Shown piece by piece: positions 9,506 through 38,115 of a stretch of DNA of 52,364 nt. A model generated the notes under the pieces. That model made no database searches. It saw nothing but the letters and a program-made list of their open reading frames with translations, and had not been told where the DNA came from. The translations under genes were made by a program, and so were the position numbers. Each line of letters begins with the position of its first letter. The first letter of the stretch is position 1. The stretch is from Coriobacteriales bacterium (GTDB lineage Bacteria > Actinomycetota > Coriobacteriia > Coriobacteriales > UBA8131): the NCBI GenBank assembly GCA_031290175.1, contig JAITOC010000101.1, forward strand, positions 1 to 52,364. The letters are read 5' to 3'.

Positions 9506-9739
9506 GGTAAACCTCCTCTTGCTAAAACCCTTTTCTTGAGCCGACCCCAGCGAAGAGGCCGGCACGTTATCTACAGCTTCTGAGCATACCACATCTGCCC
9601 ATCCTGCGCTGAACCTGTCGCGAAACAGTTGCCATAGACAGGCGACCCGATGCAGAATTCAAGCGCACCACACCGCGCAAAACGGCTCATGTAATTTGGG
9701 CGTAGGGAAACGCTAGACGCCGATTACGTGCTACCCACC

Positions 9740-10434: not shown

Positions 10435-11625
10435 TCAGTCTCCAAACTCATCTTCGCCCCTGTTTGGGGTGGGCGGCTGGTCGCGGTTGGGGTTCCTATT
10501 GAGCGCACCCTCGGAGCCGTGGTTGGGGCTCCTGTCGAGCACGCCCTCGAGCACGCCCTCGTGCTCTTCCTCAGGCTCATGGCTTGCGAGGCGCTTGGTT
10601 CTATCGCTCGGGAGTTCTCTTTTCGAGAAGCTTTTGGTGCGGTGGATGAGCACGGCGCCGATGACAAAGGGCATCCAGAAGACGATACCCCGGTAGGTCA
10701 GCGCGATGGCGGTTGCCGTTGTGGCGCCAACCTTATAGGCTGCAAGCCCAAAGACGATCATCGCCTCCACAACGCCTACACCTTGCGGCGTGATGGCAAT
10801 CCAGGAGAAGAGGGTTGCGATAACATAGCCTCCAACGAGCGCGTGCGGCTCAGAGAGTCCAAACGCCACGCCCACGCAGCAGAAACAGGCAAGTTCGAAG
10901 GTGCTCGCCAGGATGGAGAACAGAAAGACGCGGGTCGATTGCCAGGGATGACTCCTGATGTTACCCGCTGCTTCAGAAAACGACTCCACCACGTTATCGA
11001 CCCAGGGTCTGACCTCTCTGCCCTTGCGAAAACGCTGAGAAAGGTGGTTCACCAGGCGCTCGAGCGGACGCAGCAGGCCCGTCAGGATATCGGGGTTCCT
11101 GCGCCCCATATACAGGATGGTCACCATGACACCGGCGAAGAAAACAACCACCATACCGAGCATGAACCAGAGCACGGAGAGTCGTCCTGCCAATTGCAGA
11201 ATGGTAAACCCGACACACATGATGACGATGAAGCCGGTGATGACCGATATCTGCATGAGGAGTGCGGCACTGGTGGCCCTGCCTGCCGGAACGCCGCGCT
11301 TGCGGGCGCTGTCGATAACGAGCATGACACCTGCGGTATTGAATGACGGGGCGATGACATTGACAAAGTAAGAGCCAAATACGAGTGGCAGCATGGTTCG
11401 CGCTCGCGTTGACTCGCCCACAACGGCAAAGGCCTCGGCATAGGCATAGGACTGGCTGATATATTTACCAAACTGCAAGGCAACGGCAAAAACAAGTGGA
11501 ATAAGGTCACCACCCTCCATCGTCTGGCCGAGTTCAAGGAGTTGATCTCCTCTGAGCCAGAGCACACTGAGTGCAACGATGATGACGATACCTATAGCGA
11601 GTGTGCGTAGATTCGCAAAACGCAC
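10435..11625 (-). CDS. flippase-like / lysylphosphatidylglycerol-synthase TM-region (UPF0104) family membrane protein
   Basis: 396 aa, about 8 TM helices with the typical N-terminal layout (..L.G.L..L.........P.........L...Y....Y), and a hydrophilic acidic C-terminal tail. Confidence 0.6.
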   Translation of the reverse strand: MRFANLRTLAIGIVIIVALSVLWLRGDQLLELGQTMEGGDLIPLVFAVALQFGKYISQSYAYAEAFAVVGESTRARTMLPLVFGSYFVNVIAPSFNTAGVMLVIDSARKRGVPAGRATSAALLMQISVITGFIVIMCVGFTILQLAGRLSVLWFMLGMVVVFFAGVMVTILYMGRRNPDILTGLLRPLERLVNHLSQRFRKGREVRPWVDNVVESFSEAAGNIRSHPWQSTRVFLFSILASTFELACFCCVGVAFGLSEPHALVGGYVIATLFSWIAITPQGVGVVEAMIVFGLAAYKVGATTATAIALTYRGIVFWMPFVIGAVLIHRTKSFSKRELPSDRTKRLASHEPEEEHEGVLEGVLDRSPNHGSEGALNRNPNRDQPPTPNRGEDEFGD

Positions 11626-13147: not shown

Positions 13148-13224
13148 TTGGCACGTGAGATGCCTGCACACTACCTGCAATCGACCAAGTGCACAATCGC
13201 GCTCGTTGAAGAAAGGTGGAGAAC

Positions 13225-14700
13225 ATGCAATCTCACGATGAGTCAGGGTTTGATGAGCTACGCCGCTCTGCGCAGGGATTTAAAGCGGTGCCAGTGTATC
13301 GCACGTTACCCGAGGATACGCGCGACCCCCTGGAGTTGTTCAGGGTGCTCAAGCGCTTGAGCAGACATTGCTACCTCTTTGAGAGCTTAGAGGATCCCGA
13401 GCAATGGGGGCGCTACACCTTTCTCGGTTATGACCCCAAGACCGAAATCACCTGCACGGACGGACTCTTGCATATCAAGAATGGCGCGACCATAGAGGTG
13501 CAGACGCGTGAGCCAGGGCGCTACATCGCGCAGGTTCTGGCAGACTATACGACTTTGCAACTCCCCGACCTGCCGCCATTCACTGGTGGGCTCGTGGGGT
13601 ACTTCGGCTACGATTACATCAAATACATCGAGCCCTCCCTTGACCTTGATGCCCGCGACGAGGAGGGCTTCAAGGATGTTGACCTCATGCTTTTTGACAA
13701 GGTCATCGCCTACGACCACCTCAAACACTGCATCTATCTCATTGCAACGGTTCGCACCGATGCCCTGGAGGAGAACTACCACAAGGCGCAGCGCGAGCTC
13801 GACGCGATGGCACAGCTCGTCACGGAGGGCGAGGCGCTGACCGTTGAGCCCCTGCGCCTCACAGGTCCCTTTGAGGCGTTGTTCGACGAACCCCAGTACT
13901 GTGCGATGGTAAAGCGCGCCAAACACGCTATCTGCGAGGGTGACATCTTTCAGGTCGTGCTCTCCAACCGGCTGGTGGCGCCCGCAACGGGCAGCTTGTT
14001 CGACACCTACCGAGTGCTGCGTCGCATCAACCCCTCCCCCTATATGTTCTACTTCGCGAGCGACGATATCGAGATTGCCGGCGCCTCGCCCGAGACCCTT
14101 GCCCGGCTGGTCGATGGGGTGGCCTACACCTTTCCGCTGGCTGGCACCAGGCCCCGTGGCGCAACGCCCGAGGAGGATGCCACGCTCGAACGTGACCTGC
14201 TTGCCGACACCAAAGAGCTCGCCGAACATAACATGCTTGTAGACCTAGGACGCAACGACATCGGCAAAGTAAGCGCCTTTGGTACGGTGACAGTCGAGGA
14301 CTACCTCAGCATCGAGCGCTTCTCCCACGTCATGCACATCGGCTCCACGGTGCAGGGGACACTGGCTGCGGATAAGACCGCGCTCGACGTGATTGATGCC
14401 ATTCTGCCCGCCGGAACGTTGAGCGGTGCCCCCAAGATACGCGCCTGCGAGATCATCAACGAGCTTGAAGACAACAAGCGCGGCATCTACGGCGGCGCGA
14501 TTGGCTACCTCGCGTTTTCCGGCAACATGGACACCTGTATCGCGATACGCCTTGCGTTCAAGAAGAACGGGCGCGTCTTTGTGCGCTCGGGTGCCGGCAT
14601 TGTTGCCGACAGCGTGCCTGCAACCGAGTACGCCGAGTGCCGCAACAAGATGCAGGCCGTGATCGACGCGCTGCACGAGGCCGAAGGCGGCAAGCTATGA
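13225..14700 (+). CDS. trpE: anthranilate synthase component I
   Basis: Chorismate-binding signatures (GDIFQVVLS, SPSPYMFY, GAIGY). ATG at 13225 follows AAGGTGGAG; the track opens at GTG 13216. Confidence 0.95.
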   Translation: MQSHDESGFDELRRSAQGFKAVPVYRTLPEDTRDPLELFRVLKRLSRHCYLFESLEDPEQWGRYTFLGYDPKTEITCTDGLLHIKNGATIEVQTREPGRYIAQVLADYTTLQLPDLPPFTGGLVGYFGYDYIKYIEPSLDLDARDEEGFKDVDLMLFDKVIAYDHLKHCIYLIATVRTDALEENYHKAQRELDAMAQLVTEGEALTVEPLRLTGPFEALFDEPQYCAMVKRAKHAICEGDIFQVVLSNRLVAPATGSLFDTYRVLRRINPSPYMFYFASDDIEIAGASPETLARLVDGVAYTFPLAGTRPRGATPEEDATLERDLLADTKELAEHNMLVDLGRNDIGKVSAFGTVTVEDYLSIERFSHVMHIGSTVQGTLAADKTALDVIDAILPAGTLSGAPKIRACEIINELEDNKRGIYGGAIGYLAFSGNMDTCIAIRLAFKKNGRVFVRSGAGIVADSVPATEYAECRNKMQAVIDALHEAEGGKL

Positions 14701-14802
14701 ACGCCTGCTGCGTCGATGCTTGTCATAGCAGTGCCCGTTACATAGACACCAGTTGCGTCGGTGCCCACCACGCCGCAACCAGACGTGAAGAAGGGAGTCA
14801 CG

Positions 14803-15381
14803 ATGATACTGTTGGTTGATAACTATGACAGCTTCTCCTACAACCTTTACCAGATGGTTGGGGTGCTGGATCCACACATCATGGTGCTGCGCAACAACGA
14901 AGCCACCGTCGAGCGCGTGGAGGAACTCCAGCCGTCACACCTCATCCTGTCGCCTGGACCCGGGAGACCGGAGAATGCGGGGTGCTGCCCTGAGCTTATC
15001 CGCAGCTTCGCAGGGCGGGTGCCGCTGCTGGGCGTATGCCTGGGGCATCAGGCGATCTGCCAGGTATTTGGGGCACAGATTACGTATGCACGCGAGCTCA
15101 TGCACGGCAAGACCTCCCAGGTGGAGCTCGACACCAGCTCGACTCTGTTTCGCGGACTGCCGGAGCACATCACAGGGGGGCGCTATCATTCGCTGGTTGC
15201 AGAGGCTTCCACCATTCCCGCCTGTCTACGCGTGACGGCGCGGGCAGACGATGGCACCGTCATGGCCGTTGAGCATGTGCACGACCCTGTGTACGGCCTG
15301 CAGTTCCATCCCGAGTCGATACTAACACCACAGGGCAACAGCATCCTATCTAATTTTCTGGGAGAAAGAAGCGAGCGATGA
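14803..15381 (+). CDS. trpG: anthranilate synthase component II (glutamine amidotransferase)
   Basis: MILLVDNYDSFSYNLYQ, catalytic GVCLGHQ, and the HPES motif. RBS AAGGGAG before the ATG at 14803. Confidence 0.9.
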   Translation: MILLVDNYDSFSYNLYQMVGVLDPHIMVLRNNEATVERVEELQPSHLILSPGPGRPENAGCCPELIRSFAGRVPLLGVCLGHQAICQVFGAQITYARELMHGKTSQVELDTSSTLFRGLPEHITGGRYHSLVAEASTIPACLRVTARADDGTVMAVEHVHDPVYGLQFHPESILTPQGNSILSNFLGERSER

Positions 15382-16385
15382 TAAAAGAAGCGATTGTGCG
15401 GGCGGCAAGGCGGGAGAATATCGGATATGAACTGGCCGAGGAGGTGATGGATGAGATCATGGGGGGCAGCGCGACCGATATCCAGATGGCAGCATATCTC
15501 ACCGCCATGGCGGTCAAAGGTGAGACAATCGAAGAGATCACCGGCTCGGCAGCAGGGATGCGTACCCACTGCATACGACTGCTGCACGACATGGATGTAC
15601 TCGAGATCGTGGGAACGGGAGGCGACCGGTCCTTCTCGTTTAACATCTCGACCACCTCGGCGCTGGTCATCAGCGCAGCGGGAATCCCCGTGGCAAAACA
15701 CGGCAACCGTGCGGCAACCTCGAAGAGCGGTGCTGCCGACGTACTGGAAGCGCTAGGCGTCGATATCGCGGTGCCTCCGGAGAAGAGTCTGGAGTTGCTC
15801 CAATCAATAAACCTTTGCTTCCTGTTTGCCCAGAACTACCACATTGCCATGAAATATGTGGCACCGGTGCGCAAAGAGCTGGGAATACGCACAATCTTCA
15901 ACATTCTGGGACCACTGGTAAACCCCGCCGGCGCCAACCGCGAGTTGCTGGGCGTCTATGAAGAGGCTATGGTCGAGCCTCTGGCTCAGGTGCTGTGTAA
16001 CCTGGGTGTTACCGATGCGCTCGTGGTCTTTGGGCAAGACGGACTCGATGAGATTTCGATGAGCGCACCCACCAGCGTGTGCGAGGTGCGAAAGGGAAGC
16101 TTCAGTTCATATGAGATCGCGCCGGAGGATTTTGGGTTGACGCGCTGCCAGAAGGAGGATCTCGTGGGCGGTACACCGCAGGAGAACGCGGCTATCACGC
16201 GTGCCATACTCGCAGGTGAACAAGGTGCACGGCGCGATGCCGTCTTGCTCAACTCGGCGGCAGCCATCTACATCGCACGCCCCGAGTTCACCCTGGCGCA
16301 GGCTCTGGGTGTCGCACGAGAGACCATCGACAGCGGTGCCGCTTCAGAACAGCTTGACCGTTTTGTAAGACTGTCGAATAAGTAA
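15378..16385 (+). CDS. trpD: anthranilate phosphoribosyltransferase
   Basis: GTGGD, NISTTSA and KHGNRA motifs. ATGA overlap with trpG. Confidence 0.95.
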   Translation: MIKEAIVRAARRENIGYELAEEVMDEIMGGSATDIQMAAYLTAMAVKGETIEEITGSAAGMRTHCIRLLHDMDVLEIVGTGGDRSFSFNISTTSALVISAAGIPVAKHGNRAATSKSGAADVLEALGVDIAVPPEKSLELLQSINLCFLFAQNYHIAMKYVAPVRKELGIRTIFNILGPLVNPAGANRELLGVYEEAMVEPLAQVLCNLGVTDALVVFGQDGLDEISMSAPTSVCEVRKGSFSSYEIAPEDFGLTRCQKEDLVGGTPQENAAITRAILAGEQGARRDAVLLNSAAAIYIARPEFTLAQALGVARETIDSGAASEQLDRFVRLSNK

Positions 16386-16394
16386 GGAGCGACC

Positions 16395-17240
16395 ATGACG
16401 ATTCTGGACAAGATCGTGCGCGCCACACATAAACGCGTTGAGCTCCGCAAAGAAGAGGTGCTGCTCGACGTATTGCAGCAGAGGCTCGAAGCGCTTGCTA
16501 CCACCAGCGGGTATCCCTTTGAACGCGCGCTCGCAGCAGATGATGACATCGCGTTTATCTGCGAAGTCAAGAAGGCGTCCCCCTCCAAAGGAGTCATCGT
16601 GGAGGACTTTCCGTATCTTGCAATCGCCCGCGCCTATGAGCAGGCGGGAGCGGCGGCGATCTCGGTGCTCACCGAGCCGCAGTTCTTCCAAGGGTCGCCG
16701 CACTACCTGCAAGAGATTGCCGCAGCCGTGGACGTGCCACTGCTCTGCAAAGACTTCATCGTGGATCTCTATCAGGTGTATGAGGCAAAAACGCTGGGTG
16801 CACAGGCGGTGTTGCTTATTGCAAGCCTTTTTGAAGAGCAGGAGCTCGCCAGCTTTGTGGCACACACGCATGACCTTGGCATGAGCGCGCTTGTTGAGGT
16901 GCATACGGGCGCCGAGGTGCAGTACGCTCTGGCTGCGGGTGCACGCGTCATCGGCGTCAATAACCGCGACCTTGCGACCTTTGAGGTCGATCTCAACACG
17001 AGCCTGCGGCTGCGCGAGCAGGTTCCTCCCCCGGTGCTCTTTGTGAGCGAGAGCGGCATCCACTCCCCCGCCGACGTACAACGCCTGCGCGACCACGGGG
17101 TCGATGCCGTCCTCGTAGGCGAAAGCCTCATGCGTGCTGCGGATAAACGCAGGTTCCTGGCGGAGCTGCGCGGTGAGGTTGCAGGGCTCACAGGGGTTGT
17201 GTCTGCTGAACCCAGTGAACAGAAACGAGGTGAGGCGTGA
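16395..17240 (+). CDS. trpC: indole-3-glycerol-phosphate synthase
   Basis: ICEVKKASPSKG, LTEPQFFQG, NNRDL and ESGI motifs. Confidence 0.95.
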   Translation: MTILDKIVRATHKRVELRKEEVLLDVLQQRLEALATTSGYPFERALAADDDIAFICEVKKASPSKGVIVEDFPYLAIARAYEQAGAAAISVLTEPQFFQGSPHYLQEIAAAVDVPLLCKDFIVDLYQVYEAKTLGAQAVLLIASLFEEQELASFVAHTHDLGMSALVEVHTGAEVQYALAAGARVIGVNNRDLATFEVDLNTSLRLREQVPPPVLFVSESGIHSPADVQRLRDHGVDAVLVGESLMRAADKRRFLAELRGEVAGLTGVVSAEPSEQKRGEA

Positions 17241-17872
17241 GTAGTATAAAGCTCTGCGGCTTGTCGCGTTTTGAAGACGTGGCGGCGGTCAACGCGGCAT
17301 TGCCTGATTATGCGGGCTTCGTGTTCGCGTCCAGCAGGCGGCAGGTTGATGCGACACGAGCACGCCGCTTGCGAGCGAAACTCGATGAGAGAATCGTACC
17401 CGTGGGCGTATTCGTTGACGCCCCCGTTGCCGAGGTCGTTGCACTCTGCCGGGAGGGAGTCATCGCAATGGTGCAGCTGCATGGCAAGGAGTCAGAGGCG
17501 TATATCGATGAGCTCAAAGCTGCCTGCAAGGTGCCGGTTATCAAAGCCCTGCGTGTTGGGGGTGGCGAGCAGGGTGCTTGCGGGCTGAGCAGCTACGAGC
17601 AGGGCGCTTATGCACAGGCGGACTTCCTGCTCTTTGACGGGGCAAAGCCGGGGAGCGGGCAGAGCTTTGATTGGAGTGGACTTGGGCGTATCCACAGACC
17701 GTACTTTTTGGCGGGTGGGATAAACCTGCATACCATCGAGGCTGCGTTGGCACTTGAGCCCTATGGCATAGATGTGAGCAGCGGGATTGAGACAGAAGGA
17801 CGAAAGGATTGCGAGAAGATGCTTAAAATTGTTAGTTTAGTTCACAATTATAGCGAAAGGAAAGGTGCCTGA
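17237..17872 (+). CDS. trpF: phosphoribosylanthranilate isomerase
   Basis: GTG start overlaps the trpC stop. KLCGLSR...A...GADY.GFVF pattern; LAGGIN near the C-terminus. Confidence 0.9.
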
Positions 17873-19056
17873 TGACACGCGGAAGATTCGGCGTCTTTGG
17901 AGGGCAGTACATTCCCGAGACGCTCATGAACGAGCTTATCGACCTTGAAACGGCATACGAGCACTACAAGCAGGATGCGACATTCCGCGCTGAGCTCAAA
18001 GGTCTGCTCGACAACTATGCCGGTCGGCCTTCGTTGCTGTACTTTGCAAAGCACATGACAGAGGATCTAGGGGGTGCAAAGGTCTACCTGAAGCGGGAAG
18101 ACCTTAATCACACGGGTTCACACAAGATAAACAATGTGCTGGGGCAGACCCTGCTTGCCCAAAAACGTGGCAAGACCCGTGTGATCGCTGAGACCGGTGC
18201 CGGGCAACACGGTGTTGCAGCGGCTACCGCAGCAGCCTTGCTCGGGATGGAGTGTGAGGTTTTCATGGGGCGCGAAGACACCGAGCGACAGGCGCTTAAC
18301 GTGTATCGCATGGAGCTTCTGGGGGCGCGCGTGCATACGGTAACGAGCGGCACGCAGACGCTCAAGGATGCCGTGAACGAGGCCATGCGTGAATGGGTGA
18401 GCCGCGTGGAGGATACCCATTATGTGCTGGGGTCGGTCATGGGGCCACATCCCTTCCCAACCATGGTGCGGGATTTTCAGGCAGTCATAGGCGCGGAGGC
18501 GCGCGAGCAAATCCTTGCGGCTGAGGGCGCGCTGCCTGCAGCAGTGCTGGCCTGCGTGGGCGGTGGCAGCAATGCGATAGGGCTGTTCTACAACTTTATC
18601 GACGACGCTGGGGTACAGCTCATAGGGTGCGAAGCAGCGGGGCTGGGGCTTGACACCCCTCAACATGCGGCGACCATCGCAAAAGGTGAGGTGGGCGTGT
18701 TCCACGGCATGAAATCGTACTTCTGCCAGGACGAGCATGGACAGATCGCACCAGTCTACTCTATATCCGCCGGCTTGGATTATCCGGGCATCGGACCGGA
18801 ACACGCACAGCTGCACGCTACGGGTCGCGCGACCTACGTACCCGTCACCGACGATGAAGCCGTGGATGCCTTCGAGTATCTGGCGCGCTGCGAGGGCATC
18901 ATCGCCGCTATCGAAAGCGCCCACGCCGTGGCTCACGCCCGCGTGTTGGCACCCACGCTGCCCCGCGAGAGCAGCATCATCGTGTGCCTGAGCGGTCGCG
19001 GCGATAAAGACGTCGCGGCTATCGCACGGTATACCGGGAGGGAGATCAATGAGTAG
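17872..19056 (+). CDS. trpB: tryptophan synthase beta chain
   Basis: [16 protein letters not shown] (PLP lysine), GAGQHG and GGGSNA motifs. TGATG overlap with trpF. Confidence 0.97.
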
Positions 19057-19822
19057 AATCGCAGAGGCTTTTGAGCAGGGTTCGACATTTGTGGGCTTCG
19101 TAACAGGAGGGGATCCTTCCATCGCACGGAGCGAGGAGTACATCCTCGCGATGATCGATGCCGGGGCAGACCTTATCGAGATCGGCATACCCTTCTCCGA
19201 TCCCGTTGCAGAAGGTCCGGTGATCCAGGAGGCAAACCTGCGTGCCCTGGCGGCAGGCACCACCGTTGATACCCTGTTTGACCTGGTGCGTTCGCTCAGG
19301 GAGAAAACCGAGGTTCCTCTCGTCTTTCTCACCTACCTCAACCCGGTGCATCACTACGGGTACGAGAGGTTCTTTGCCGCCTGCCAGGAAGCCGGGGTGG
19401 ATGGGATCATCATCCCTGACCTGCCCTATGACGAGAAGGACGAGCTCGCGGGGGTTGCTGCCACGCACGAAGTTGCCCTGATCTCACTGATCGCGCCAAC
19501 CTCGGAAGGGCGCATACGAGCCATCGCCCGCGACGCGACCGGCTTTATCTACCTGGTCTCATCCCTAGGTGTCACGGGCGTGCGCACCAACATCAGCACC
19601 GACCTGGAAGCTATTGTGAAGACGATACGCGAGGTGACCGAAGTACCCGTCGCCATAGGTTTCGGCGTGCACACACCCGAGCAGGCGCAGACTCTCGCGC
19701 AGGTTGCCGATGGCGTCATCGTAGGAAGCGCCATCGTGAAGATCATCGCCGCAGACCCCGACACCGCAAGCAGCAAGCTGCATCGTTACGTGAGCGAGCT
19801 GAAGCGAGCAATGATGCGCTGA
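19049..19822 (+). CDS. trpA: tryptophan synthase alpha chain
   Basis: [22 protein letters not shown] and [10 protein letters not shown] motifs. Overlaps the trpB end by 8 nt. Confidence 0.95.
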
Positions 19823-19974: not shown

Positions 19975-20397
19975 TTATTCAAGGGCGTAGGGTATCTCTA
20001 TCCTCTCCCCGTTTTTGTATAGGACAATCGTTGCGTTGTTGCGATCGTACTGGAACAACGCCCCTGCTGAATCCTCTGCTCCGTCCTCAACTGCTATGAT
20101 ATTGTAGTTAAAGATGCCTGCTTCCTTTGCCATGCTGGCGACCTTGCTCGCTGCATACTCAGCGAGAGCCTGACGCTTGTCATCGGCTGCGTTTGCCCAA
20201 TCAAAGCTCGGATTCACATAGATAGTGTAGTTCTTGAAATCGACTCCGTTACTGTTCTGCGCAGTTTCACCGACACGAACGATATACTTCTCGTTGGGAT
20301 CAGCGCCATCGCCACAACCGGACAGTGCTACCAAAGAACCCAGCGACATCGCCACCATAAGCACTGTCAAGATAACAGCTACAATCCTTTTTTTCAT
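19975..20397 (-). CDS. small lipoprotein (hypothetical)
   Basis: ATG at 20397 is preceded by GAGGAG. Lipobox signal MKKRIVAVILTVLMVAMSLGSLVALSGC. The longer track ORF (to 20640) overlaps the upstream gene and lacks an RBS. Confidence 0.6.
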   Translation of the reverse strand: MKKRIVAVILTVLMVAMSLGSLVALSGCGDGADPNEKYIVRVGETAQNSNGVDFKNYTIYVNPSFDWANAADDKRQALAEYAASKVASMAKEAGIFNYNIIAVEDGAEDSAGALFQYDRNNATIVLYKNGERIEIPYALE

Positions 20398-20449
20398 GTT
20401 TAACTCCTCATCATAATTAATCCACCACGTTATAAAATTATACCACTCA

Positions 20450-21604
20450 TTATGCGCCATCTTCGGCCTGGGACTCCTCGCCCCCTTCTGCGCCCTCATT
20501 TGACCCGTCTTCAGATTGATCCGGTTGCTCATAATCAGGAGACGCTCCCTCTGGCTCCCCCTCCGGCAAATCAGTACCAGCGGGCTGCTCCGGAGCCAGT
20601 TGTTCCTGCGCCGGCGCAACAGCAGGTGGAGTAGTCGCATCGTTGGTTGGAGCAGCTGAGGGAAGAGTGACTACCTCAAAATCGCTCACAACGAGGGTGC
20701 TTCCCAAACGCACCAGCTTGTAGAGGAAGACGACATCGTGTGTCGTGTTCCCACTGGGCAAGTTGATGATGTAGCGCGCATGCACGAGTGCGTAGACCGT
20801 TGCACCATCACGATATATCGTGCCAAAAGCGAGCTGATTGAATGAAATCTGACCACCCTCAGCAAGGCTCTTGTAATAGGCCTCTGCCTTGCTGCCCGGC
20901 CGCGTATTATCAAAGACGGTCTCATCGGCCTTGTTGGCGTAATTAACCCAATCGCTGTTGAGTTTGATGATGCGCCCAACCGTCACTTCGTCATACAGCA
21001 GCTTAACCTTCTGCGATTCCGTTGTGGTTGTCCCGTCAGGGTTTGTGACGGTCTTCTCATCCAACGCCTCTCTGAAAAAGTTGTTCAGGTACTTGCTCTC
21101 ATCCGCCGGATTGAGAGGATCAAACAGGGGCTTGAGCTTATCGGCATCCACGATGGTAAAGCTTGCGCCATAATTCTCCTTGGTGAGCGCTGAGTCATAA
21201 CCAATCTTGCCGATACCCTCGTTCCAGCCGAGCTGAGACTGAATGAGTGCTATCGGATTAGTGTTCGGTGCAATTTTCTCCCGGAAGGGACTGGCATCCC
21301 CTAGTGAGAGGGCCAATCCGACTATCAGGATATCAAAGACGAGAATGATTACGATGAGAAGCATCACGCGCTTACGCGAGAAGAAGTTCCCCTGTGCCTC
21401 TGCTGCCTTTGCCTGCGCTCGGGCTCGGCTGTTGGCTGTCGCCGGACGAGCAGTTGCTGCACGACGGCGCTTCATCCCAGCCTTCGCTGTAGCCTTTGCT
21501 TCCTTCTCCGCAGTTTTTGCATCTTCTTGGGCACGCCGAGCCGCTATATCATTCGACGACGTGGCTTTTCGGTTCTGACCATCTGTTGCCATTCCAAATA
21601 TCAT
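20450..21604 (-). CDS. type-II membrane protein with a basic cytoplasmic N-tail and acidic C-tail (hypothetical)
   Basis: ATG at 21604 with AAGGTGGA upstream. The Arg/Lys/Ala-rich N-terminal about 75 aa are followed by one TM helix (VMLLIVIILVFDILIVGLALSL), a globular external domain and an acidic Pro/Glu C-terminus. Confidence 0.6.
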   Translation of the reverse strand: MIFGMATDGQNRKATSSNDIAARRAQEDAKTAEKEAKATAKAGMKRRRAATARPATANSRARAQAKAAEAQGNFFSRKRVMLLIVIILVFDILIVGLALSLGDASPFREKIAPNTNPIALIQSQLGWNEGIGKIGYDSALTKENYGASFTIVDADKLKPLFDPLNPADESKYLNNFFREALDEKTVTNPDGTTTTESQKVKLLYDEVTVGRIIKLNSDWVNYANKADETVFDNTRPGSKAEAYYKSLAEGGQISFNQLAFGTIYRDGATVYALVHARYIINLPSGNTTHDVVFLYKLVRLGSTLVVSDFEVVTLPSAAPTNDATTPPAVAPAQEQLAPEQPAGTDLPEGEPEGASPDYEQPDQSEDGSNEGAEGGEESQAEDGA

Positions 21605-21684
21605 CAATCCACCTTACTATTCGCCCTACATCCTTGCCACAGCAAAGGTCTGTTCTCCCCGCGATCTAGCCCCTAGGTCTTGAA

Positions 21685-23898
21685 TCAAAGGAGATTGTTA
21701 AAGCATCCACCCACAGATTCTATATCGATTATCCCAACATTCACCAACAACATCAAAAGAAAAACCTGAACAACGAGAATCAGGAACACAATGAGTATGA
21801 ATCCAATCCTGCTGATCGGTCGATCTGCGATCACGGCATCATCCTCATCAAGCAGCTCTGAGTCATCAATATCAAGTGAGACATCAACGGTAAGATCCTT
21901 GTCGCTGGGATCAGAGGGTTCTGGGGGTTGTAACTCGGCGCGCGTCTCATGGATGAAGCCTGGCTCAAGGGCAACCTCCTTAATAGTATCATGTCCAAAA
22001 TAGAAATCTGATGCAGGCTCAAGAGACAACGCGGGGTCTGAGCCGACCTCGAACCCGGGCTGAGCAGAGGCAGATGCTTCGTATAGAGGCTCCGTGTATT
22101 CACCTGCCGCTACAGACCCCTGCATATCGGATGTCCGTGATATCTCGGGCGTCTGCTGCAGAATGGTCGGCTCTGGTGTGTATGTTGGTGATGGTGTATA
22201 CACCTGCTCGATTGAAGGAACCACATCCACAGCCTGGGAAAAGGCATGCTCATAAGCCGGCTCGACGGTGGTGAGGGGCAGGTATACCGACGCCTCCAGA
22301 GCGGCCGCCTGATCCGCGCTCTCAAGCTCGGGTACCAAGGGCGCAATCTGCGCAAGAAAGTCATCGATCTCGTGCGTGCGCTCAAAAATCGGTGTTATTG
22401 TCGCTGGCTGCGGAACATCTATCGTCTGCGGCTCTGCGAAAGCCGAGGACTCGCGGGATTCCTCCGACCCCGTCGTGTAGACTTGGGGAAGAACGGGATC
22501 CTCAAGTATCGGCTCAACAGCATCATAAAGCTGCTCGACAACCGGCGTGACCTCGATCTCAACACTATCCACGGGCACATCGATTGTTACATGTTCATGG
22601 ACAACAGTCGCAGATGGCTCAAAGTCCGGTATCACATCAGGAACCATGAGAGGCTCGAGGAAGGCCTCCCCTCCCTCTTCACCCGATGGTGATGGCAGAG
22701 CCTCATATTCCGGAGACACAGCGGATTTGGACGACGGTTCGATTTCCGACTCAAAATCGGGAGCATACACGGGCCACGGAACCTGGAGGGGAGCCGGAAT
22801 GGTCGGCGGGGAAGGCTCAGGGCTGAATGCATGCGTGGCCTCAAGCGAAGGTTCGATGATCGGCGCAAGTTCGAGATCAAGCTCGAGCTCGGGCACGAGC
22901 CCGGACGCGGCGGTAGTCGCGACGGGAGGCTCGGCGATAGTCGCTCTTGGGGGCTCGATAACAGCCTGATCGTCTGGCTTGAAGTCCAGATCAAGCTCTT
23001 GGATGATGGTTACAGCCGAATCCGGCTCATCAGGGAATAAGCCGAAAAGACTCGAAAGCTGTTCTTCTGGTTCGATCTCGGGCACGGGCTCGATCTCGGG
23101 CACGGGTTCGATCTCGGGCACGATCTCGGGCGCAAGCGCAGGCGCGGGTGCAAATGTCTTTGCCCTAGGTTCGGGCACCTTCGGTGCCGGGGGTACCCTT
23201 AAGCCTGGTGCGGGCTCGACAGGAGCGGGCTCGAATACGACGGGCTCAAACACTGGTTCAAACACTGACTCGGACTCAGGCTCTGGTTCAGGTTCAAGCA
23301 CTGGCTTAGGTTCAAACACTGGTTCGACCTCAGGCTCAAGCACTGGCTCAGGCACTGGTTCAGGTTCAAACACTGGCTCGGACTCTACCTTGAGTAGCTC
23401 GCGCATCGATACAGGCGACACCGGCGGTGGAGCAATGGAGGGTTCCGGCCTGTCTCCAAAGATGGGGTCAAGCGATGAAACCAGCCCCGCAGCTAGAAAG
23501 GGGTCGAACTCAGGCTCTGGCTCGGGTTCGGGCATGACAGAGCGGAACGAGAGATCAAAGGGCAACTCTTGCTCAGAATCTGGAACGTCCTGGGGGGTTG
23601 TCTTTGGAACAGGGATTTCTGGTGCAAGAGAAATCCGCTCACTACCAAGAAACTCAGCAAGCAGCTCTCGTTTCAGTTCTTCCTTGAGCTCAGTCTTTAT
23701 CTCTTGTTTTACAGAGCTCGAAGTCACCAAGACAGAAGGAGCAACACCGAGGTCAGGGGTGACATCGGATACCAGAGATGCTATTTTGACCGCGATGACA
23801 TCCTCGGCTCCTGCAAAGGAGCCGAGAGAGAAAGCCTCTAAGCCAAAGAGCCCCGAATCGAGGCTCTCGTCCGCATGATCGTTCTGATCGACGCCCAT
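21685..23898 (-). CDS. very acidic Pro/Glu/Val-rich repeat protein with a C-terminal transmembrane anchor (hypothetical)
   Basis: 737 aa uninterrupted ORF starting 32 nt downstream of the bactofilin gene. EPVFEP / PEIEPV repeats. The single hydrophobic helix sits at the extreme C-terminus (IGFILIVFLILVVQVFLLMLLVNVGII). Confidence 0.65.
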   Translation of the reverse strand: MGVDQNDHADESLDSGLFGLEAFSLGSFAGAEDVIAVKIASLVSDVTPDLGVAPSVLVTSSSVKQEIKTELKEELKRELLAEFLGSERISLAPEIPVPKTTPQDVPDSEQELPFDLSFRSVMPEPEPEPEFDPFLAAGLVSSLDPIFGDRPEPSIAPPPVSPVSMRELLKVESEPVFEPEPVPEPVLEPEVEPVFEPKPVLEPEPEPESESVFEPVFEPVVFEPAPVEPAPGLRVPPAPKVPEPRAKTFAPAPALAPEIVPEIEPVPEIEPVPEIEPEEQLSSLFGLFPDEPDSAVTIIQELDLDFKPDDQAVIEPPRATIAEPPVATTAASGLVPELELDLELAPIIEPSLEATHAFSPEPSPPTIPAPLQVPWPVYAPDFESEIEPSSKSAVSPEYEALPSPSGEEGGEAFLEPLMVPDVIPDFEPSATVVHEHVTIDVPVDSVEIEVTPVVEQLYDAVEPILEDPVLPQVYTTGSEESRESSAFAEPQTIDVPQPATITPIFERTHEIDDFLAQIAPLVPELESADQAAALEASVYLPLTTVEPAYEHAFSQAVDVVPSIEQVYTPSPTYTPEPTILQQTPEISRTSDMQGSVAAGEYTEPLYEASASAQPGFEVGSDPALSLEPASDFYFGHDTIKEVALEPGFIHETRAELQPPEPSDPSDKDLTVDVSLDIDDSELLDEDDAVIADRPISRIGFILIVFLILVVQVFLLMLLVNVGIIDIESVGGCFNNLL
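23059..23541. repeat. in-frame short tandem/low-complexity repeats (PEPE, EPVFEP, PEIEPV x3) inside the 737-aa CDS
   Basis: The repeated DNA units are visible (e.g. CGGGCACGGG(C/T)TCGATCT x3 near 23085-23130) and correspond to aa about 120-280. Confidence 0.7.
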
Positions 23899-23930
23899 CA
23901 GTTTTATCTCTCATCCAAACGCTGCACAGA

Positions 23931-25907
23931 TTATAGGACCTCTTCAAACGGCGCTTCCAGATTCCCTTCCACGAGGGTTCTGACATTACCGTTAAGGACA
24001 GCTCCTGGCTCCACTGCAAGCGAAGCGGCAGAAACATCACCGAGGCAATAGGAGTGACTTCTCAGCACTACAACATTCTCCGCATTGATGCTTCCCTTGA
24101 CCTTACCATCGAAGATGATATTTTTGGTTGAAATATTGCCACCAACAACTGACCCATCATTAACGATTACGCCAGCAGCCGCAGCAAGGTTACCCTTGAC
24201 TCGACAGGTGTATAAGCCGATTTTCTCGCCACCCACATCTCCATGCACAACACCGTGTATGGCAACATCACCCTTTGCTTCGATATTACCACGGACACGA
24301 CCAACGATGTCTATATGACCATCGGTGATGATGTTGCCAAGCACCGTGGCCTCGCGAGTGATAATGGAAACGCCCTTCTCAACCGGCTCTTCCTCTATGA
24401 CCTCAGCTTCGGTGGAATCCTCATCGGGCTCCGCACTGAGCTCACTTGCGGGAACCGCCAGGGAGGTTACATCATCATAGGGGAGCTCGGCTGCAGATTC
24501 GGGCGCTACAGCGGACACAGGAGCGGGCTCGACTGACACCGGTGCATCGGGGGCAGGAGCAGGCGACACGGGTAGGGGCACTACGACATCCTCGACCTCA
24601 GGTGTGGACTCAAGTGCGACAGGAACATCCGTGTCTTCAGGAGCGGCCTCATCAGCCACTGCTTCCTGTATTTCAGCAACTTCAGGAGCAACCTCATCAA
24701 GCGCAACCTCTAGTGTTTCAGCAACTTCAGGAGCGGCCTCTTCAGCCACTGCTTCCTGTATTTCAGCAATCTCAGGAGCAGCCTCTTCAAACGCAACCTC
24801 AGCCTGAGCTTCAACAACCTCAGGAGCGACCTCTTCAGCCACTGCTTCCTGCGTTTCAGCAACTTCAGGAGCGGCCTCATCAAGCGCAACTTCAGCCTGA
24901 GCTTCAACAGCCTCAGAAGCAGCCTCTTCAGCCACTGCTTCCTGTATTTCAGCAATCTCAGGAGCAGCCTCTTCAAACGCAACCTCAGCCTGAGCTTCTA
25001 TTTCAATGGGCGGTGCAATAGCGGGGGCATCAACAGCAATAGCCTCTGCTGGAGTTTCAGCGAAGATTTCTGCAACGAAAGTTTCCCCCTCAACAGGAGC
25101 CTCTTGTGCTGCTGCATCGATTCCTTCTTCGATTTCTGCAACCGGGGCGGGAACATCCGCTTCCTCGAAAACCGCTACGGGCTCTACCGGCTCCACGACT
25201 TCCAGAACGTCCAGTGTCTCCAGGGGTTCTACAGGCTCGTCTACCTCTGCCTCTTCATCTACCTCCCTGAATGCCTCTACAGGGATGGTCTCCTCAAAGG
25301 CCTCTACAGGCTCTGCAGATGCGTACTCGTCTGCCTCCCTGAATGCCTCCGCAGGGATGCTCTCCTCAAAGGCCTCTGCGGGCTCAACGACCTCAAAGGT
25401 CTCTACGGGCGCGTACTCGTCTGCCTCCCTGAAAGCTTCTGTGGGTACACTCTCCTCAAAAGCCTCTACGACCTCTACAGGTGCATACTCATCTGCTTCC
25501 CTGAATGCCTCTGTAACTTCCAGAGGTGCATCTGCTTCCACGAAAATTTTTGCTCCCTGAGCAAGCTCCTCGGCGATGGTTCCATCAACTTCTGGAAATG
25601 TCTCGACCTTGACGGACACAAACCTCACGGTTGAATCGGCATCGAAAGGCAGGGCTTCTTCTGCTTCCCCATAGAGCGAAGCGGGGATTGCGTCGGGGAT
25701 ATCAGCACTGAAGGCTGTGGATTCTTCTTCCGCGCCCGCAAAGAGCGAGGCAGGGATTGCGTCGGGGATAACGGGAACGGGCGAATCGACATAGGCCGAA
25801 GTCGCTTGGGGTACGTCGGGCGGAACAGGAAACGTCCCCGGCGTCTCTGGAACCGGCTCGAATGCCGAATCACTAGGAAATATATTCACATTGTTATCCT
25901 CTGCCAC
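23931..25907 (-). CDS. bactofilin-domain cytoskeletal protein with an approximately 500-aa acidic repeat N-terminal extension
   Basis: The C-terminal about 125 aa match the bactofilin/DUF583 beta-helix pattern (VLGNIITDGHIDIVGRVRGNIEAKGDVAIHGVVHGDV..., ...GNLAAAAGVIVNDGSVVGGNIS..., GKVKGSINAENVVVL...GDVSAASLAVEPGAVLNGNV). GTG start with AGAGGTG upstream. Confidence 0.8.
   Translation of the reverse strand: MAEDNNVNIFPSDSAFEPVPETPGTFPVPPDVPQATSAYVDSPVPVIPDAIPASLFAGAEEESTAFSADIPDAIPASLYGEAEEALPFDADSTVRFVSVKVETFPEVDGTIAEELAQGAKIFVEADAPLEVTEAFREADEYAPVEVVEAFEESVPTEAFREADEYAPVETFEVVEPAEAFEESIPAEAFREADEYASAEPVEAFEETIPVEAFREVDEEAEVDEPVEPLETLDVLEVVEPVEPVAVFEEADVPAPVAEIEEGIDAAAQEAPVEGETFVAEIFAETPAEAIAVDAPAIAPPIEIEAQAEVAFEEAAPEIAEIQEAVAEEAASEAVEAQAEVALDEAAPEVAETQEAVAEEVAPEVVEAQAEVAFEEAAPEIAEIQEAVAEEAAPEVAETLEVALDEVAPEVAEIQEAVADEAAPEDTDVPVALESTPEVEDVVVPLPVSPAPAPDAPVSVEPAPVSAVAPESAAELPYDDVTSLAVPASELSAEPDEDSTEAEVIEEEPVEKGVSIITREATVLGNIITDGHIDIVGRVRGNIEAKGDVAIHGVVHGDVGGEKIGLYTCRVKGNLAAAAGVIVNDGSVVGGNISTKNIIFDGKVKGSINAENVVVLRSHSYCLGDVSAASLAVEPGAVLNGNVRTLVEGNLEAPFEEVL
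24636..24995. repeat. about 4 tandem copies of a 93-bp (31-aa) unit AQAEVAFEEAAPEIAEIQEAVAEEAA(S/P)E(A/V)VE inside the bactofilin CDS
   Basis: Near-identical 93-bp units can be read directly in the sequence; they are in frame and cover aa about 305-424. Confidence 0.8.
25242..25511. repeat. about 4 degenerate tandem copies of an EAFREADEYAPVE...EAFEE(S/T)(V/I)P.E unit inside the bactofilin CDS
   Basis: The protein-level repeat covers aa about 133-222, and the underlying DNA is visibly reiterated. Confidence 0.7.
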
Positions 25908-25953
25908 GTCACACCTCTAAATCGATTCTCGGTAGAGCAACCCTCAATGCCAT

Positions 25954-25981
25954 ATTGTACGAAAAATACAAGCGGCCACAA
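25954..25981 (-). promoter_or_regulatory. candidate promoter of the bactofilin cluster
   Basis: On the minus strand: TTGTGG (25981-25976), 16-nt spacer, TACAAT (25959-25954). It lies about 45 nt upstream of the GTG start. Confidence 0.3.
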
Positions 25982-26075
25982 GTACCTTGGACCACAACGG
26001 ACTACATTCTACCTTACTCAAGCCCTCACAAACAGGAGATACCGCAAAAAAGCTGTGCAAAAATCCAAAATATCG

Positions 26076-26100
26076 ACACGCCGCACCTATACGGCGGTGT
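26076..26100 (-). terminator. possible ribF terminator
   Basis: Imperfect GC hairpin (ACACGCCG...CGGCGGTGT), followed on the minus strand by a T-rich tract (ATATTTTGGATTTTTG...CTTTTTTG). Confidence 0.3.
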
Positions 26101-26170
26101 GTGACCTTGTGTTGCCAAACCGTGGACTCCAAACGCGGATCCGTAGCGTTGCATATGCACGGGTAAGACG

Positions 26171-27133
26171 TCACACGAGGAGCTGTCGCACATAGGCGAT
26201 GTTGGACTGCACCGTCTGCACAAGCTCCTCAACGCTGGAGAAGGCATACATAGGGCGCAGGTATTCGATAAAAGCTACTTTAACCTCGCGACCATAGAGT
26301 GCACCCTCGAAGTCAATCAGGTGTGCCTCGATTGTTGCCTCGACACCCATGAAGGTGGCAGGCACGCCTATGGAGATGGCCGCCTTGCAGGGGAGATCGT
26401 CTAAGAACACATAGCCCGCGTAGACGCCGTCTGCCGGACGTACGAGCGAATCCTCGATGACGATATTGGCGGTTGGAAATCCGAGTTCATGCCCGACTCG
26501 ACGCCCCGGAACCACATGCGCACGCACGTAATACGGTCGTGTGAGCAGGTGGTTTGCCTCTTCCAGTTGTGCCGCCTGCAGAGCATTGCGCACCCGGGTT
26601 GCGGTAACCGGCGTATCGTCGTCTGCGAGCAATGCCTGGGGAGAGACGTCACAACCAACACCTGCGCCCCAGGTGTGCAGGTCATCGACTGTGCCGATGG
26701 CGCGATGCCCAAAGCGGAAATCCTCGCCAACGAAGATGGCGCGCGGCGTGCAGCAACTACCGAAGACATGATCGAGGAAGTCAGCAGGCTCACGCATGGC
26801 TAACACCTCGTCAAAGGGCAGGACGAGCACAGCATCCACAGGCGCAGTGGCGAGATAGGCAAGCCGCTCGGCGTTCGTAAGCAATTTGCGCCAACGCTCC
26901 TGAGGGAGAAAGAACTCGTCCGGATCGCGATCAAAGGTAACAACGATATGCGCTGTGCCCCGACGCTGCGCCTCGGCACACGCTTGCTCGATGAGAAACT
27001 GGTGCCCCCGGTGAAAACCATCAAAGACACCGAAGGTACAGACGACCTCACCAAGGCCTTCTGCCTGTGAAAAGGGCACGATGCGTGCGCGCTGTGCCGC
27101 TTTCAGATGCCGATCAGTCAACAGGTCTACCAC
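26171..27133 (-). CDS. ribF: bifunctional riboflavin kinase / FMN adenylyltransferase
   Basis: GVFDGFHRGHQ nucleotidyltransferase motif and a C-terminal riboflavin kinase region (GFPTANI, ...EAHLIDF). GTG at 27133 is preceded by GGAGG at 5 nt. The track ORF extends to 27388, but only inside truB. Confidence 0.9.
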   Translation of the reverse strand: MVDLLTDRHLKAAQRARIVPFSQAEGLGEVVCTFGVFDGFHRGHQFLIEQACAEAQRRGTAHIVVTFDRDPDEFFLPQERWRKLLTNAERLAYLATAPVDAVLVLPFDEVLAMREPADFLDHVFGSCCTPRAIFVGEDFRFGHRAIGTVDDLHTWGAGVGCDVSPQALLADDDTPVTATRVRNALQAAQLEEANHLLTRPYYVRAHVVPGRRVGHELGFPTANIVIEDSLVRPADGVYAGYVFLDDLPCKAAISIGVPATFMGVEATIEAHLIDFEGALYGREVKVAFIEYLRPMYAFSSVEELVQTVQSNIAYVRQLLV

Positions 27134-28073
27134 TGATGCCTCCAGGGATGATGGTTCGCGGAATGAGGACACGCCCCTGTGCCCGGGCTTCAAACACGGC
27201 AACAAGCCGCCTATCATACACCAAAGATACGGGTGCGCCTTCTGCGAGTCCGTCAGCCCTGCCGACGAGCGTGCGACCATGGGTGACATCACGATACTCT
27301 GCGGCAGTAAGTGCCAATGCGGGATACCCGAGCGCATCAAAGGGGTCAAGCCAGTACGGTTCGACACCCTCAGTTTCCAGCTCTTCAAGGGTAACGGCCT
27401 CGTTCGGCGCGTCTTTGATGCTTATGGTGCCGATGCGGGTTCGGCGCAGGGCGGCGAGGTGTGCGTGGGATCCGATGCCTTCACCGAGGTCGCGGGCAAG
27501 CGCGCGCACATAGGCACCCTTTGAGCAGACAAGCTCGATACGCCAACTGTCCGCTGTGGTCTCAAGCAGCTGTATCGAGTGGATAGTGACCTCGCGGGGC
27601 TCAAGCTCAGGCTCCTTTCCTGCACGTGCCAGCTTGTAGGCAGCAACACCATCGCGTTTGATGGCGGCGTAACGGGGCGGCAGTTGCAGGAAGCTTCCCG
27701 TGAAGCGAGAAAGGATGTCGCACGCAAAATCAGCGTCCGCCACCTTGGAAGGAATAGGAGCTTGCGCAATGGGCGCACCCTCAGCGTCGTCGGTGTCTGT
27801 CGCCACGCCGAAGCATATGCGTGCCTCGTAGGCCTTGTCCCTGTGCATGAGATAATCGGAGAGCCGGGTCGCAGGGCCAACGCAGACAAGCAACAACCCT
27901 GTTGCCGCCGGGTCGAGCGTGCCGGCATGACCGACTCTGCCCTCTCCTGAGGTACGGCGGATGCGATCCACCACGTCGTGCGAGGTCAAACCTGCGGGTT
28001 TATCCACTGCAAGCAGGCCAGAGAGGGTAGTGTTTCCGCGCCGCTTGTTACCCAAGGGTCTTCTCTGTGGCAC
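27114..28073 (-). CDS. truB: tRNA pseudouridine(55) synthase
   Basis: GLLAVDKPAGLTSHD and GHAGTLDPAATGLL (catalytic Asp) motifs. Confidence 0.95.
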   Translation of the reverse strand: MPQRRPLGNKRRGNTTLSGLLAVDKPAGLTSHDVVDRIRRTSGEGRVGHAGTLDPAATGLLLVCVGPATRLSDYLMHRDKAYEARICFGVATDTDDAEGAPIAQAPIPSKVADADFACDILSRFTGSFLQLPPRYAAIKRDGVAAYKLARAGKEPELEPREVTIHSIQLLETTADSWRIELVCSKGAYVRALARDLGEGIGSHAHLAALRRTRIGTISIKDAPNEAVTLEELETEGVEPYWLDPFDALGYPALALTAAEYRDVTHGRTLVGRADGLAEGAPVSLVYDRRLVAVFEARAQGRVLIPRTIIPGGISGRPVD

Positions 28074-36448: not shown

Positions 36449-36457
36449 GCTTCTTCC

Positions 36458-38052: not shown

Positions 38053-38115
38053 GGATACTCCTTTGGTTCTTCCGGTGCTTGACTCCATCGGCAGATTTCA
38101 GTCTAGCGAAACACC

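Follow-up and report, generated by a model that had tools for sequence, protein, structure and literature searches.

The window analysed here, a stretch of 52,364 nucleotides (nt) of contig JAITOC010000101.1 from a Coriobacteriales bacterium (assembly GCA_031290175.1), carries on its minus strand four genes, P1 to P4, that encode an acidic bactofilin, an acidic protein with a C-terminal membrane anchor, a single-pass membrane protein and a small lipoprotein. The four open reading frames (ORFs) run in the same direction with gaps of 32, 77-80 and 52 nt. They lie directly downstream of ribF, which is recognised by profile matches, and further up follow truB, a gene for a DHH phosphoesterase, infB and nusA. 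Both the co-directional arrangement and the position after ribF had been described in an earlier reading made from the letters alone (the sequence-only reading), and both are confirmed. As a whole, the observation made there is partly confirmed and its interpretation partly supported, in that the proposed module of all four genes finds no support, while a narrower unit, the pair of P1 and P2, does.

23931..25907, minus strand: P1, acidic bactofilin of 658 amino acids (aa); GTG start, ribosome-binding site AGAGGTG
21685..23898, minus strand: P2, 737-aa acidic, P/E/V-rich tail-anchored protein
20450..21604/21607, minus strand: P3, bitopic membrane protein of 384/385 aa
19975..20397, minus strand: P4, 140-aa lipoprotein

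The bactofilin P1 and the tail-anchored protein P2

Within P1 and P2, the following parts can be distinguished.

24393..25907, minus strand: polyanionic low-complexity N-terminal extension of P1, aa 1-505
24637..24998, minus strand: tandem repeat in P1, 93-nt unit in 3.9 copies with 87% matches
23934..24392, minus strand: bactofilin beta-helix domain and C-terminal tail of P1, aa 506-658
23743..23859, minus strand: N-terminal motif of P2, aa 14-52: DSGLFGLEAFSLGSFAGAEDVIAVKIASLVSDV...
23072..23385, minus strand: short tandem repeats in the P2 linker, of 18, 36 and 54 nt, encoding PEPEPV/EPVFEP-type sequence
21727..21807, minus strand: C-terminal transmembrane helix of P2, aa ~698-724, with a 13-aa tail starting D-I

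As judged from its domain matches, P1 is a bactofilin. PF04519 (Bactofilin) is its sole Pfam match (aa 567-642, E 8e-18, with 64.9 bits where the gathering threshold is 27.9), in agreement with the sequence-only reading, which had seen no other recognisable domain in the 658 residues. A profile of the domain also retrieves the bactofilin structures 6RIA (TtBac; 1e-7) and 2N3D (BacA; 6e-5) from the PDB. From this homology we infer that P1 polymerises into filaments in a nucleotide-independent manner, which would proceed through the C-terminal beta-helix. The protein has an isoelectric point (pI) of 4.05 and, by hydropathy, contains neither a hydrophobic segment nor a transmembrane helix. Its domain region (aa 506-658) is 71-85% identical across 21 other distinct close lineages, and the C-terminal tail (G)NLEAPFEEVL is kept in the clade as ..LEAPFEEV(L/I/M). 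Between the window and the relative at locus L006, the bactofilin domain is 85% identical, compared with 56% for RibF, 58% for TruB and 65% for NrnA, the last being a label given to the DHH phosphoesterase from its sequence and position. By this measure, the bactofilin core is under stronger constraint than its housekeeping neighbours.

The N-terminal extension of P1 is strongly acidic, with 141 D/E against 7 K/R and a net charge per residue of -0.265. The N-terminus itself is acidic (MAEDNNVNIFPSDSAFEP), and relatives in the clade begin with MDE.., MAEDNN.. or MPEFNADG..FEP-type sequences. A canonical membrane-targeting peptide, which is short, hydrophobic at its second position and contains basic residues, is found neither in P1 nor in the bactofilins of the Coriobacteriia clade. 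The sequence-only reading had called the bactofilin "giant". However, whole bactofilins of the relatives comprise 219-553 aa with an N-terminal extension of variable length, and the P1 extension contains the 93-nt repeat, which encodes A/E/V-rich units of ~31 aa; the size of P1 is therefore a local repeat expansion of a disordered region rather than a family trait. More generally, the exceptional lengths of both P1 and P2 in this genome would reflect recent repeat expansions of disordered regions.

P2 agrees with its earlier description as an acidic, P/E/V-rich protein whose sole hydrophobic helix is C-terminal. Its pI is 4.05, proline makes up 14.7% and D/E 20% of its residues, and hydropathy detects a single hydrophobic segment, followed by 13 residues. 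With no N-terminal signal or transmembrane segment and one transmembrane helix no more than ~30-40 residues from the C-terminus, P2 has the features of a tail-anchored protein. No Pfam, NCBIfam or PADLOC match was obtained for P2, and its orthologues are likewise without a Pfam or NCBIfam domain. In particular, Pfam and NCBIfam give no similarity to penicillin-binding proteins or M23 in P2 or its orthologues, and with ~13 residues outside the membrane P2 would have no cell-wall enzyme domain.

A phmmer search of full-length P2 against 1.84e9 representative sequences returned a single match, a C-terminal fragment; the conserved N-terminal motif (aa 14-52) is too short to be found by a single-sequence search. 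Alignments of 18-20 non-redundant orthologues (A1 and A6) give this motif the consensus GLF....FS.D.F...DEQIQ.SIS..L, or in lettered form DSGLFGSDAFSLDAFNNLDEQIQSSISSVLESV, which can also be written GLFGsDAFS.D.F...DEqIqsSI..lL. Its second half is amphipathic, with a hydrophobic moment (muH) of 0.40 in the consensus. We consider the motif a candidate bactofilin-binding peptide. The short motifs FAGAE and LFGL that were once proposed to be shared between P1 and P2 do not stand out from chance: P1 and P2 have 4 five-residue words in common, where shuffling that preserves composition gives 2.5 +/- 1.7 (p = 0.24), and P1 scores -0.2 bits against a hidden Markov model (HMM) of the P2 N-terminal motif, whereas shuffled P1 reaches 6.9 bits.

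Opposite P1 and P2, three antisense ORFs of 184-299 aa are present on the plus strand (22979-23878, 24446-25021 and 25006-25560). Their translations are of low complexity, being S/G/T-rich or Q/P/L-rich, and they are by-products of the repeats rather than genes.

Conservation of the pair in relatives

Loci L006-L040 were collected by bactofilin-domain scans of GTDB genomes and JGI metagenomes, plus look-ups of profile matches. After de-replication, the close set comprises the window and 21 further distinct lineages at 71-85% domain identity; where named, these relatives are Coriobacteriia-type metagenome-assembled genomes, and the remainder are metagenome contigs. In all 22 of the 22 distinct lineages, a P2-like gene follows in the same direction, 15-42 nt past the bactofilin stop codon. 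The P2-like products share the conserved N-terminal motif, an acidic low-complexity linker and a C-terminal transmembrane helix. Six orthologues are intact, with 737 aa in the window, 730 in L029, 827 in L036, 871 in L008, 1189 in L040 and 1700 in L011, and the remaining P2-like genes are truncated at contig ends or broken by frameshifts of the assembly. All six are acidic (pI 4.05-4.47) and end in a transmembrane helix and a short tail. A "G.I/L-D" motif after the helix is common to the window, L008, L011 and L029 and occurs in variant form in L036 and L040. Those at L008, L011, L036 and L040 have one hydrophobic segment, and the L029 protein has an extra, weak internal one at aa 204-223. The proline content of the linkers varies from 2 to 19%.

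The genes around the pair differ among the lineages. Upstream lies ribF in the window and L006, the recR region in L007, L008, L010, L016, L036 and L040, rplL in L009, and a YkuD L,D-transpeptidase gene in L011, L012, L028 and L038; downstream, rplM-rpsI, DUF1015, feoAB or P4-type lipoprotein genes are found. Since the upstream genes differ, the adjacency of the pair evidently survives rearrangement. The comparison strongly supports the view that the bactofilin and the tail-anchored P2 are functionally linked, and this part of the sequence-only reading holds, with 22 of 22 lineages and at least four contexts in its favour.

The adjacency could instead be inherited synteny in a narrow clade, with P2 as a fast-evolving and possibly dispensable low-complexity ORF. 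The close relatives do seem to come from one narrow group of gut-type metagenomes and uncultured genomes, a search with the single sequence leaves P2 an orphan, and repeat slippage is evident. Nevertheless, we judge this explanation very improbable: the pair is kept in the several downstream as well as upstream contexts, its spacing is constant within the 15-42 nt given above, the N-terminal motif and the C-terminal helix are conserved at bactofilin identities of 71-85%, and the architecture recurs in a more distant tier of Clostridia at 56-60% identity.

This second tier consists of ~45 clusters at 56-62% identity, named Clostridiales or Family XIII, two of which were examined (those at 56-60%). 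At both loci, the bactofilin gene is followed by a gene for a protein of 204 or 128 aa, with stop and start codons overlapping. These mini-partners have an N-terminal motif (..FDTDDFIAPDTLSVVNGSVR..), a P/A/E-rich linker of ~60-130 residues and a transmembrane helix at the extreme C-terminus; hydropathy also gives a single C-terminal hydrophobic segment in the partners at L032 and L034. In layout the mini-partners correspond to P2, and homology between them is unproven. Among proteins P0035-P0059, the bactofilins of this tier share a basic M(I/V)NLKDLLRSGK N-terminus and a second motif, ELVPDF..A.DYI.DVEE. Among more distant bactofilins, no P2-like partner is present at the loci examined (the 49%-identity L035, L013 and L014). 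L014 also has no envelope-enzyme neighbour. The Clostridiales loci L013 (9294-11310) and L035 (9022-10660) have bactofilins beside genes for membrane-anchored polysaccharide deacetylases, and one of the two has two tandem bactofilins; here too a bactofilin is thus paired with an enzyme of the cell wall.

Several genes for envelope enzymes are found near the bactofilins. In one sub-branch, a gene for a membrane-anchored L,D-transpeptidase (YkuD + PG_binding_4) with a cytoplasmic N-tail of 20-130 aa lies immediately upstream of the bactofilin gene and in the same direction (L011 7751-9541; L012 5330-6814; L028 6249-7751; L038 8170-9750), and we regard this enzyme as a candidate client of the bactofilin. 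Genes for S26 signal peptidases occur near the bactofilin in both tiers. Those of the Coriobacteriia tier (L016 3429-4853 and L040 2899-4872, both minus strand) are divergent and encode unusually long proteins of 474 and 657 aa, in which ~310-490 residues, cytoplasmic, precede the catalytic domain. Those of the Clostridia tier (L032 9256-9912 and L034 5477-6073) are of normal size, co-directional and immediately upstream of the bactofilin gene. The P2-motif HMM gave no signal in the N-tails of the neighbouring L,D-transpeptidases and S26 peptidases.

P3, P4 and the surrounding genes

P3 is a single-pass protein with a basic cytoplasmic N-tail, as had been read from the sequence. The transmembrane helix spans aa ~81-103, the N-tail has 18 K/R against 7 D/E (net charge per residue +0.14), and beyond the helix a globular part is followed by an acidic C-tail. 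The tail had been taken as charge-complementary to the acidic proteins. However, P3 has six homologues in 5.8e9 proteins; those at 33-37% identity adjoin lexA-mscL, nrdR or degV with no bactofilin nearby, and distant homologues also carry basic N-tails. Because the homologues lie elsewhere and keep their basic tails there, the charge-complementary link lacks comparative support. P3-family genes at L002 (7149-8946), L003 (4715-6769) and L005 (350-2573), in seemingly related genomes, usually lie beside lexA-mscL or nrdR. The copy in the window may be a relocated paralogue.

By sequence, P3 has no match in the PDB. Its AlphaFold2 (AF2) model reaches a predicted local distance difference test (pLDDT) value of 80-88 over aa 210-310 and 58 overall. 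The top 50 Foldseek matches of the ectodomain model are mostly NTF2-like, SnoaL or VirB8-like; they are weak (best E 1.7e-3), with target-normalised TM-scores mostly of 0.4-0.6 for matches of the NTF2-like type. On this modelling, an NTF2-like fold is a candidate for the ectodomain. Identification of P3 as MacP (NF038277, a cell-wall synthase accessory phosphoprotein) fails, since the score of 14 bits (E 0.054) is far below the NCBIfam threshold of 45.

P4 is a small lipoprotein, again as described before. Its signal peptide ends in the lipobox LSGC (MKKRIVAVILTVLMVAMSLGSLVALSGC), which fits the pattern [LVI][ASTG][GAS]C, and four family members all keep the lipobox cysteine. Single-sequence AF2 modelling gave a pLDDT of 62, Foldseek found nothing better than E 0.1, and a PDB profile search returned nothing credible. 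A P4 homologue (64% identity) follows a P3 orthologue (69% identity) at L004. Near the pair, a P4-family gene comes immediately after the P2-like gene in L007, two tandem paralogues of 129 and 149 aa follow it in L040 (10293-11204), and in L036/L037 a P4-family gene is upstream, between recR and the bactofilin gene. The P4 family, which recurs close to the pair in four lineages, may thus be a loosely associated, possibly extracytoplasmic accessory of the pair.

With respect to the proposed conservation of the four-gene neighbourhood, the P1-P2 pair is retained in every close lineage, the P4 family recurs in the loci just named, and P3 neighbours a bactofilin in the window alone. These findings bear on the proposal that all four genes form one trans-envelope module in which P2 tethers an acidic brush, the basic tail of P3 couples to it by charge and P4 lies outside. 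The shared direction of the four genes, their close spacing without an intervening terminator-like site, the basic P3 tail, the adjacency of P3 and P4 orthologues in L004 and the recurrence of the P4 family near the pair are all in line with such a module. On the other hand, no P3 gene is present at any other bactofilin locus, even where the flanks are complete (L007, L011, L036 and L040), similarly basic-tailed homologues lie beside lexA-mscL, nrdR and degV where no bactofilin is present, and basic juxtamembrane tails are a generic feature under the textbook positive-inside rule. We consider the four-gene module quite improbable. Instead, P3 probably stands outside the bactofilin unit, as an unrelated, putatively NTF2-like membrane protein whose gene came to lie between P2 and P4 in the lineage of the window.

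In L040 (10293-14024), the P2-like and P4-type genes are followed directly by LPG_synthase_TM, YtxH and PRC genes, and L007 (11640-14782) has the same gene order and sizes. Orthologues of the three L040 genes, 70, 58 and 48% identical, are present on the minus strand of the window (10435-11625, 8957-9592 and 7959-8921, respectively). Between them and P4 stands a trp operon in the opposite orientation (13216-19822, plus strand), which is convergent to P4 and ends at 19822. Relative to L040, the window thus has P3 between P2 and P4 and the trp operon after P4, and this arrangement suggests that an insertion or inversion has taken place in the lineage.

Upstream of P1, the spacer to ribF is:

25908..26170, minus strand: ribF-P1 spacer, 263 nt

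The sequence-only reading had assigned the four genes their own candidate promoter. Our scan for promoter consensus sequences gave 6 sites against 3.7 +/- 2.2 expected from shuffled sequences, and none is convincing in the spacer, where the consensus is absent apart from one site overlapping the P1 start codon; the promoter is therefore not borne out. The same promoter/terminator scan, which did not rise above shuffled expectation, found no terminator-like sites between the four genes. No Rfam family or tRNA was detected in the window, including the spacer. PADLOC defence models gave 0 families at E <= 0.01 for all four proteins, which thus match no known anti-phage defence system.

Two further observations concern the genes upstream. 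The mechanically called ribF ORF (26171-27388, minus strand; TTG start, 405 aa) extends into truB. Its similarity to RibF sets in only at aa ~106-118, so the true ribF start is probably ~100 codons downstream. Directly upstream of nusA (34748-38088, minus strand) are genes for a protein with a Cthe_2159 carbohydrate-binding domain, a DUF4956 protein and a VTC-domain protein.

P2 as a putative membrane tether and comparison with known bactofilin systems

We lean, by a small measure, towards the reading that P1 and P2 form a two-gene functional cassette in which P2 serves as membrane tether or adaptor for the bactofilin. P1 alone should not bind anionic membranes, because its N-terminus is strongly acidic and has no basic or hydrophobic targeting peptide. 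P2 would insert into the membrane by its tail, keeping its N-terminus in the cytoplasm and exposing only ~13 residues outside. Its conserved N-terminal aromatic/acidic peptide of ~35 residues could then dock onto the bactofilin polymer, while the C-terminal helix would hold the complex at the membrane. Between them, the linker, which is acidic and often rich in proline, may act as a flexible tether or spacer; it ranges from ~60 to ~1600 residues across relatives. Among the possible roles of P2, that of tether or adaptor is the best supported, owing to the acidic N-termini of the Coriobacteriia bactofilins and to the precedent of the bactofilin partners PbpC and LmdC.

The process that the scaffold would serve is only hinted at by the neighbouring genes. 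The recurrence of the YkuD L,D-transpeptidase, the S26 signal peptidase, the deacetylase and the P4 lipoprotein suggests that the scaffold organises cell-wall or envelope processes, and the enzymes so organised would most likely be those that modify the envelope or the peptidoglycan.

Several points weigh against the tether. P2 and the N-terminal extension of the bactofilin are both polyanionic, and hence their association is not obviously favoured. The window's own P2 motif is modestly amphipathic (muH 0.22). Homology of the Coriobacteriia P2 motif to the Clostridia mini-partners is not significant: the P2-motif HMM scores only 1-2 bits, and hhalign, though in the expected register, gives P = 0.03 and a probability of 1.7%. 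Every Coriobacteriia-type relative comes from an uncultured genome or a metagenome contig, and short contigs are frequent. Furthermore, the bactofilins of the Clostridia tier retain a basic N-terminus (MINLKDLLRSGK), with which they may attach to the membrane directly. A partner is therefore not needed there solely as an anchor, and anchoring may not be its only role. The difference between the tiers suggests that a peptide resembling the membrane-targeting sequence has been lost or replaced in the Coriobacteriia.

It is conceivable that P2 is an effector positioned by the bactofilin rather than its anchor. The bactofilin would then concentrate P2 at a site, where the long, disordered polyanionic chains could serve at the membrane as an entropic brush, as a barrier to diffusion, as a condensate or as a zone that excludes nucleoid or ribosomes; P2 might also regulate or cap polymerisation. 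Since P2 has no ectodomain and no recognisable fold, the disordered region makes up almost the entire protein, which would suit such a role. The linker, moreover, is hypervariable in length and yet always acidic (intact Coriobacteriia orthologues of 730-1700 aa), and Clostridia bactofilins with a targeting-like N-terminus still have a partner. However, the composition of the linker is not conserved, as its proline content shows (2-19%), and linkers of merely ~60-130 residues in the Clostridia argue against a brush as the conserved function. In addition, the literature on BacA-PbpC and BacA-LmdC offers no experimental precedent for such an effector with bactofilins. The effector reading thus seems unlikely to us, though not strikingly so.

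For the tether, a broader formulation can be put forward, tentatively and with more doubt than belief: P2 may found an undescribed class of domain-less tail-anchored bactofilin adaptors, in which nothing but the N-terminal docking peptide and the C-terminal transmembrane helix is conserved and a disordered, polyanionic linker of hypervariable length joins the two. Such adaptors would replace or supplement the bactofilin targeting peptide in anaerobic Gram-positive bacteria, namely Coriobacteriia and probably also Clostridia of Family XIII, and the linker together with the acidic extension of P1 would set the distance between filament and membrane or build a charged brush. If this is true, the family represents a natural system with ~25-fold variation in tether length, useful for probing the disordered flanks of bactofilins and their partners.

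The pair bears on how bactofilins without a canonical N-terminal targeting peptide gain access to the membrane. A 2025 eLife study noted bactofilin lineages with differing N-terminal motifs and showed that a client can take the place of the targeting sequence. Our literature search returned no bactofilin partner of the P2 type and nothing on Coriobacteriia bactofilins, consistent with the earlier statement that no described bactofilin system of this composition is known.

The closest known counterparts of the P1-P2 pair are BacA-PbpC of Caulobacter crescentus and BacA-LmdC of Hyphomonas neptunium and Rhodospirillum rubrum, where the bactofilin gene likewise lies beside a gene for a single-pass membrane protein. 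In PbpC, the N-terminus carries a conserved peptide that docks on BacA, with a Pro-rich region and a transmembrane helix behind it, and overproduced PbpC can stand in for the bactofilin targeting sequence (PMC12448750). Residues 1-38 of LmdC bind BacA with a KD (dissociation constant) of about 15 uM, and bacA-lmdC operons are widespread (PMC10945521). As in P2, a cytoplasmic N-terminus with a short conserved peptide precedes a linker and a transmembrane helix in both proteins, where that peptide is what binds the bactofilin. Unlike them, P2 has no extracytoplasmic catalytic domain, and with so few residues outside it would be a tail-anchored protein and not a bitopic enzyme. The part of P2 in the cytoplasm is polyanionic and hundreds to ~1600 residues long.

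P1 itself resembles canonical bactofilins, such as BacA and Thermus TtBac, in having a beta-helical PF04519 domain between disordered tails. It differs from them in its acidic N-terminus, the 505-aa extension and the clade-conserved C-terminal tail. The canonical membrane-targeting sequence, MFSKQAKS in BacA (PMC12448750), has no counterpart in P1.

Another membrane-anchored tether of a cytoskeletal polymer offers an analogy. ZipA tethers FtsZ by means of a transmembrane helix that a long, flexible linker rich in P and Q joins to a small element binding the filament. In contrast to P2, the helix of ZipA is N-terminal and a C-terminal globular domain binds FtsZ; the filament is a different one and the two proteins are not homologous.

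Finally, the CcmA-type bactofilins of Proteus mirabilis possess their own N-terminal transmembrane helices instead of a targeting peptide, for stable attachment to the membrane (PMC12448750), whereas P1 has no hydrophobic segment and the helix resides on P2, a separate protein encoded downstream. These parallels suggest that P1 and P2 follow the known pattern of a bactofilin combined with a membrane protein that carries an N-terminal docking peptide, with a tail-anchored partner as the undescribed element. If true, such a domain-less partner would constitute a third mode of attachment, beside the targeting peptide and the intrinsic transmembrane helices.

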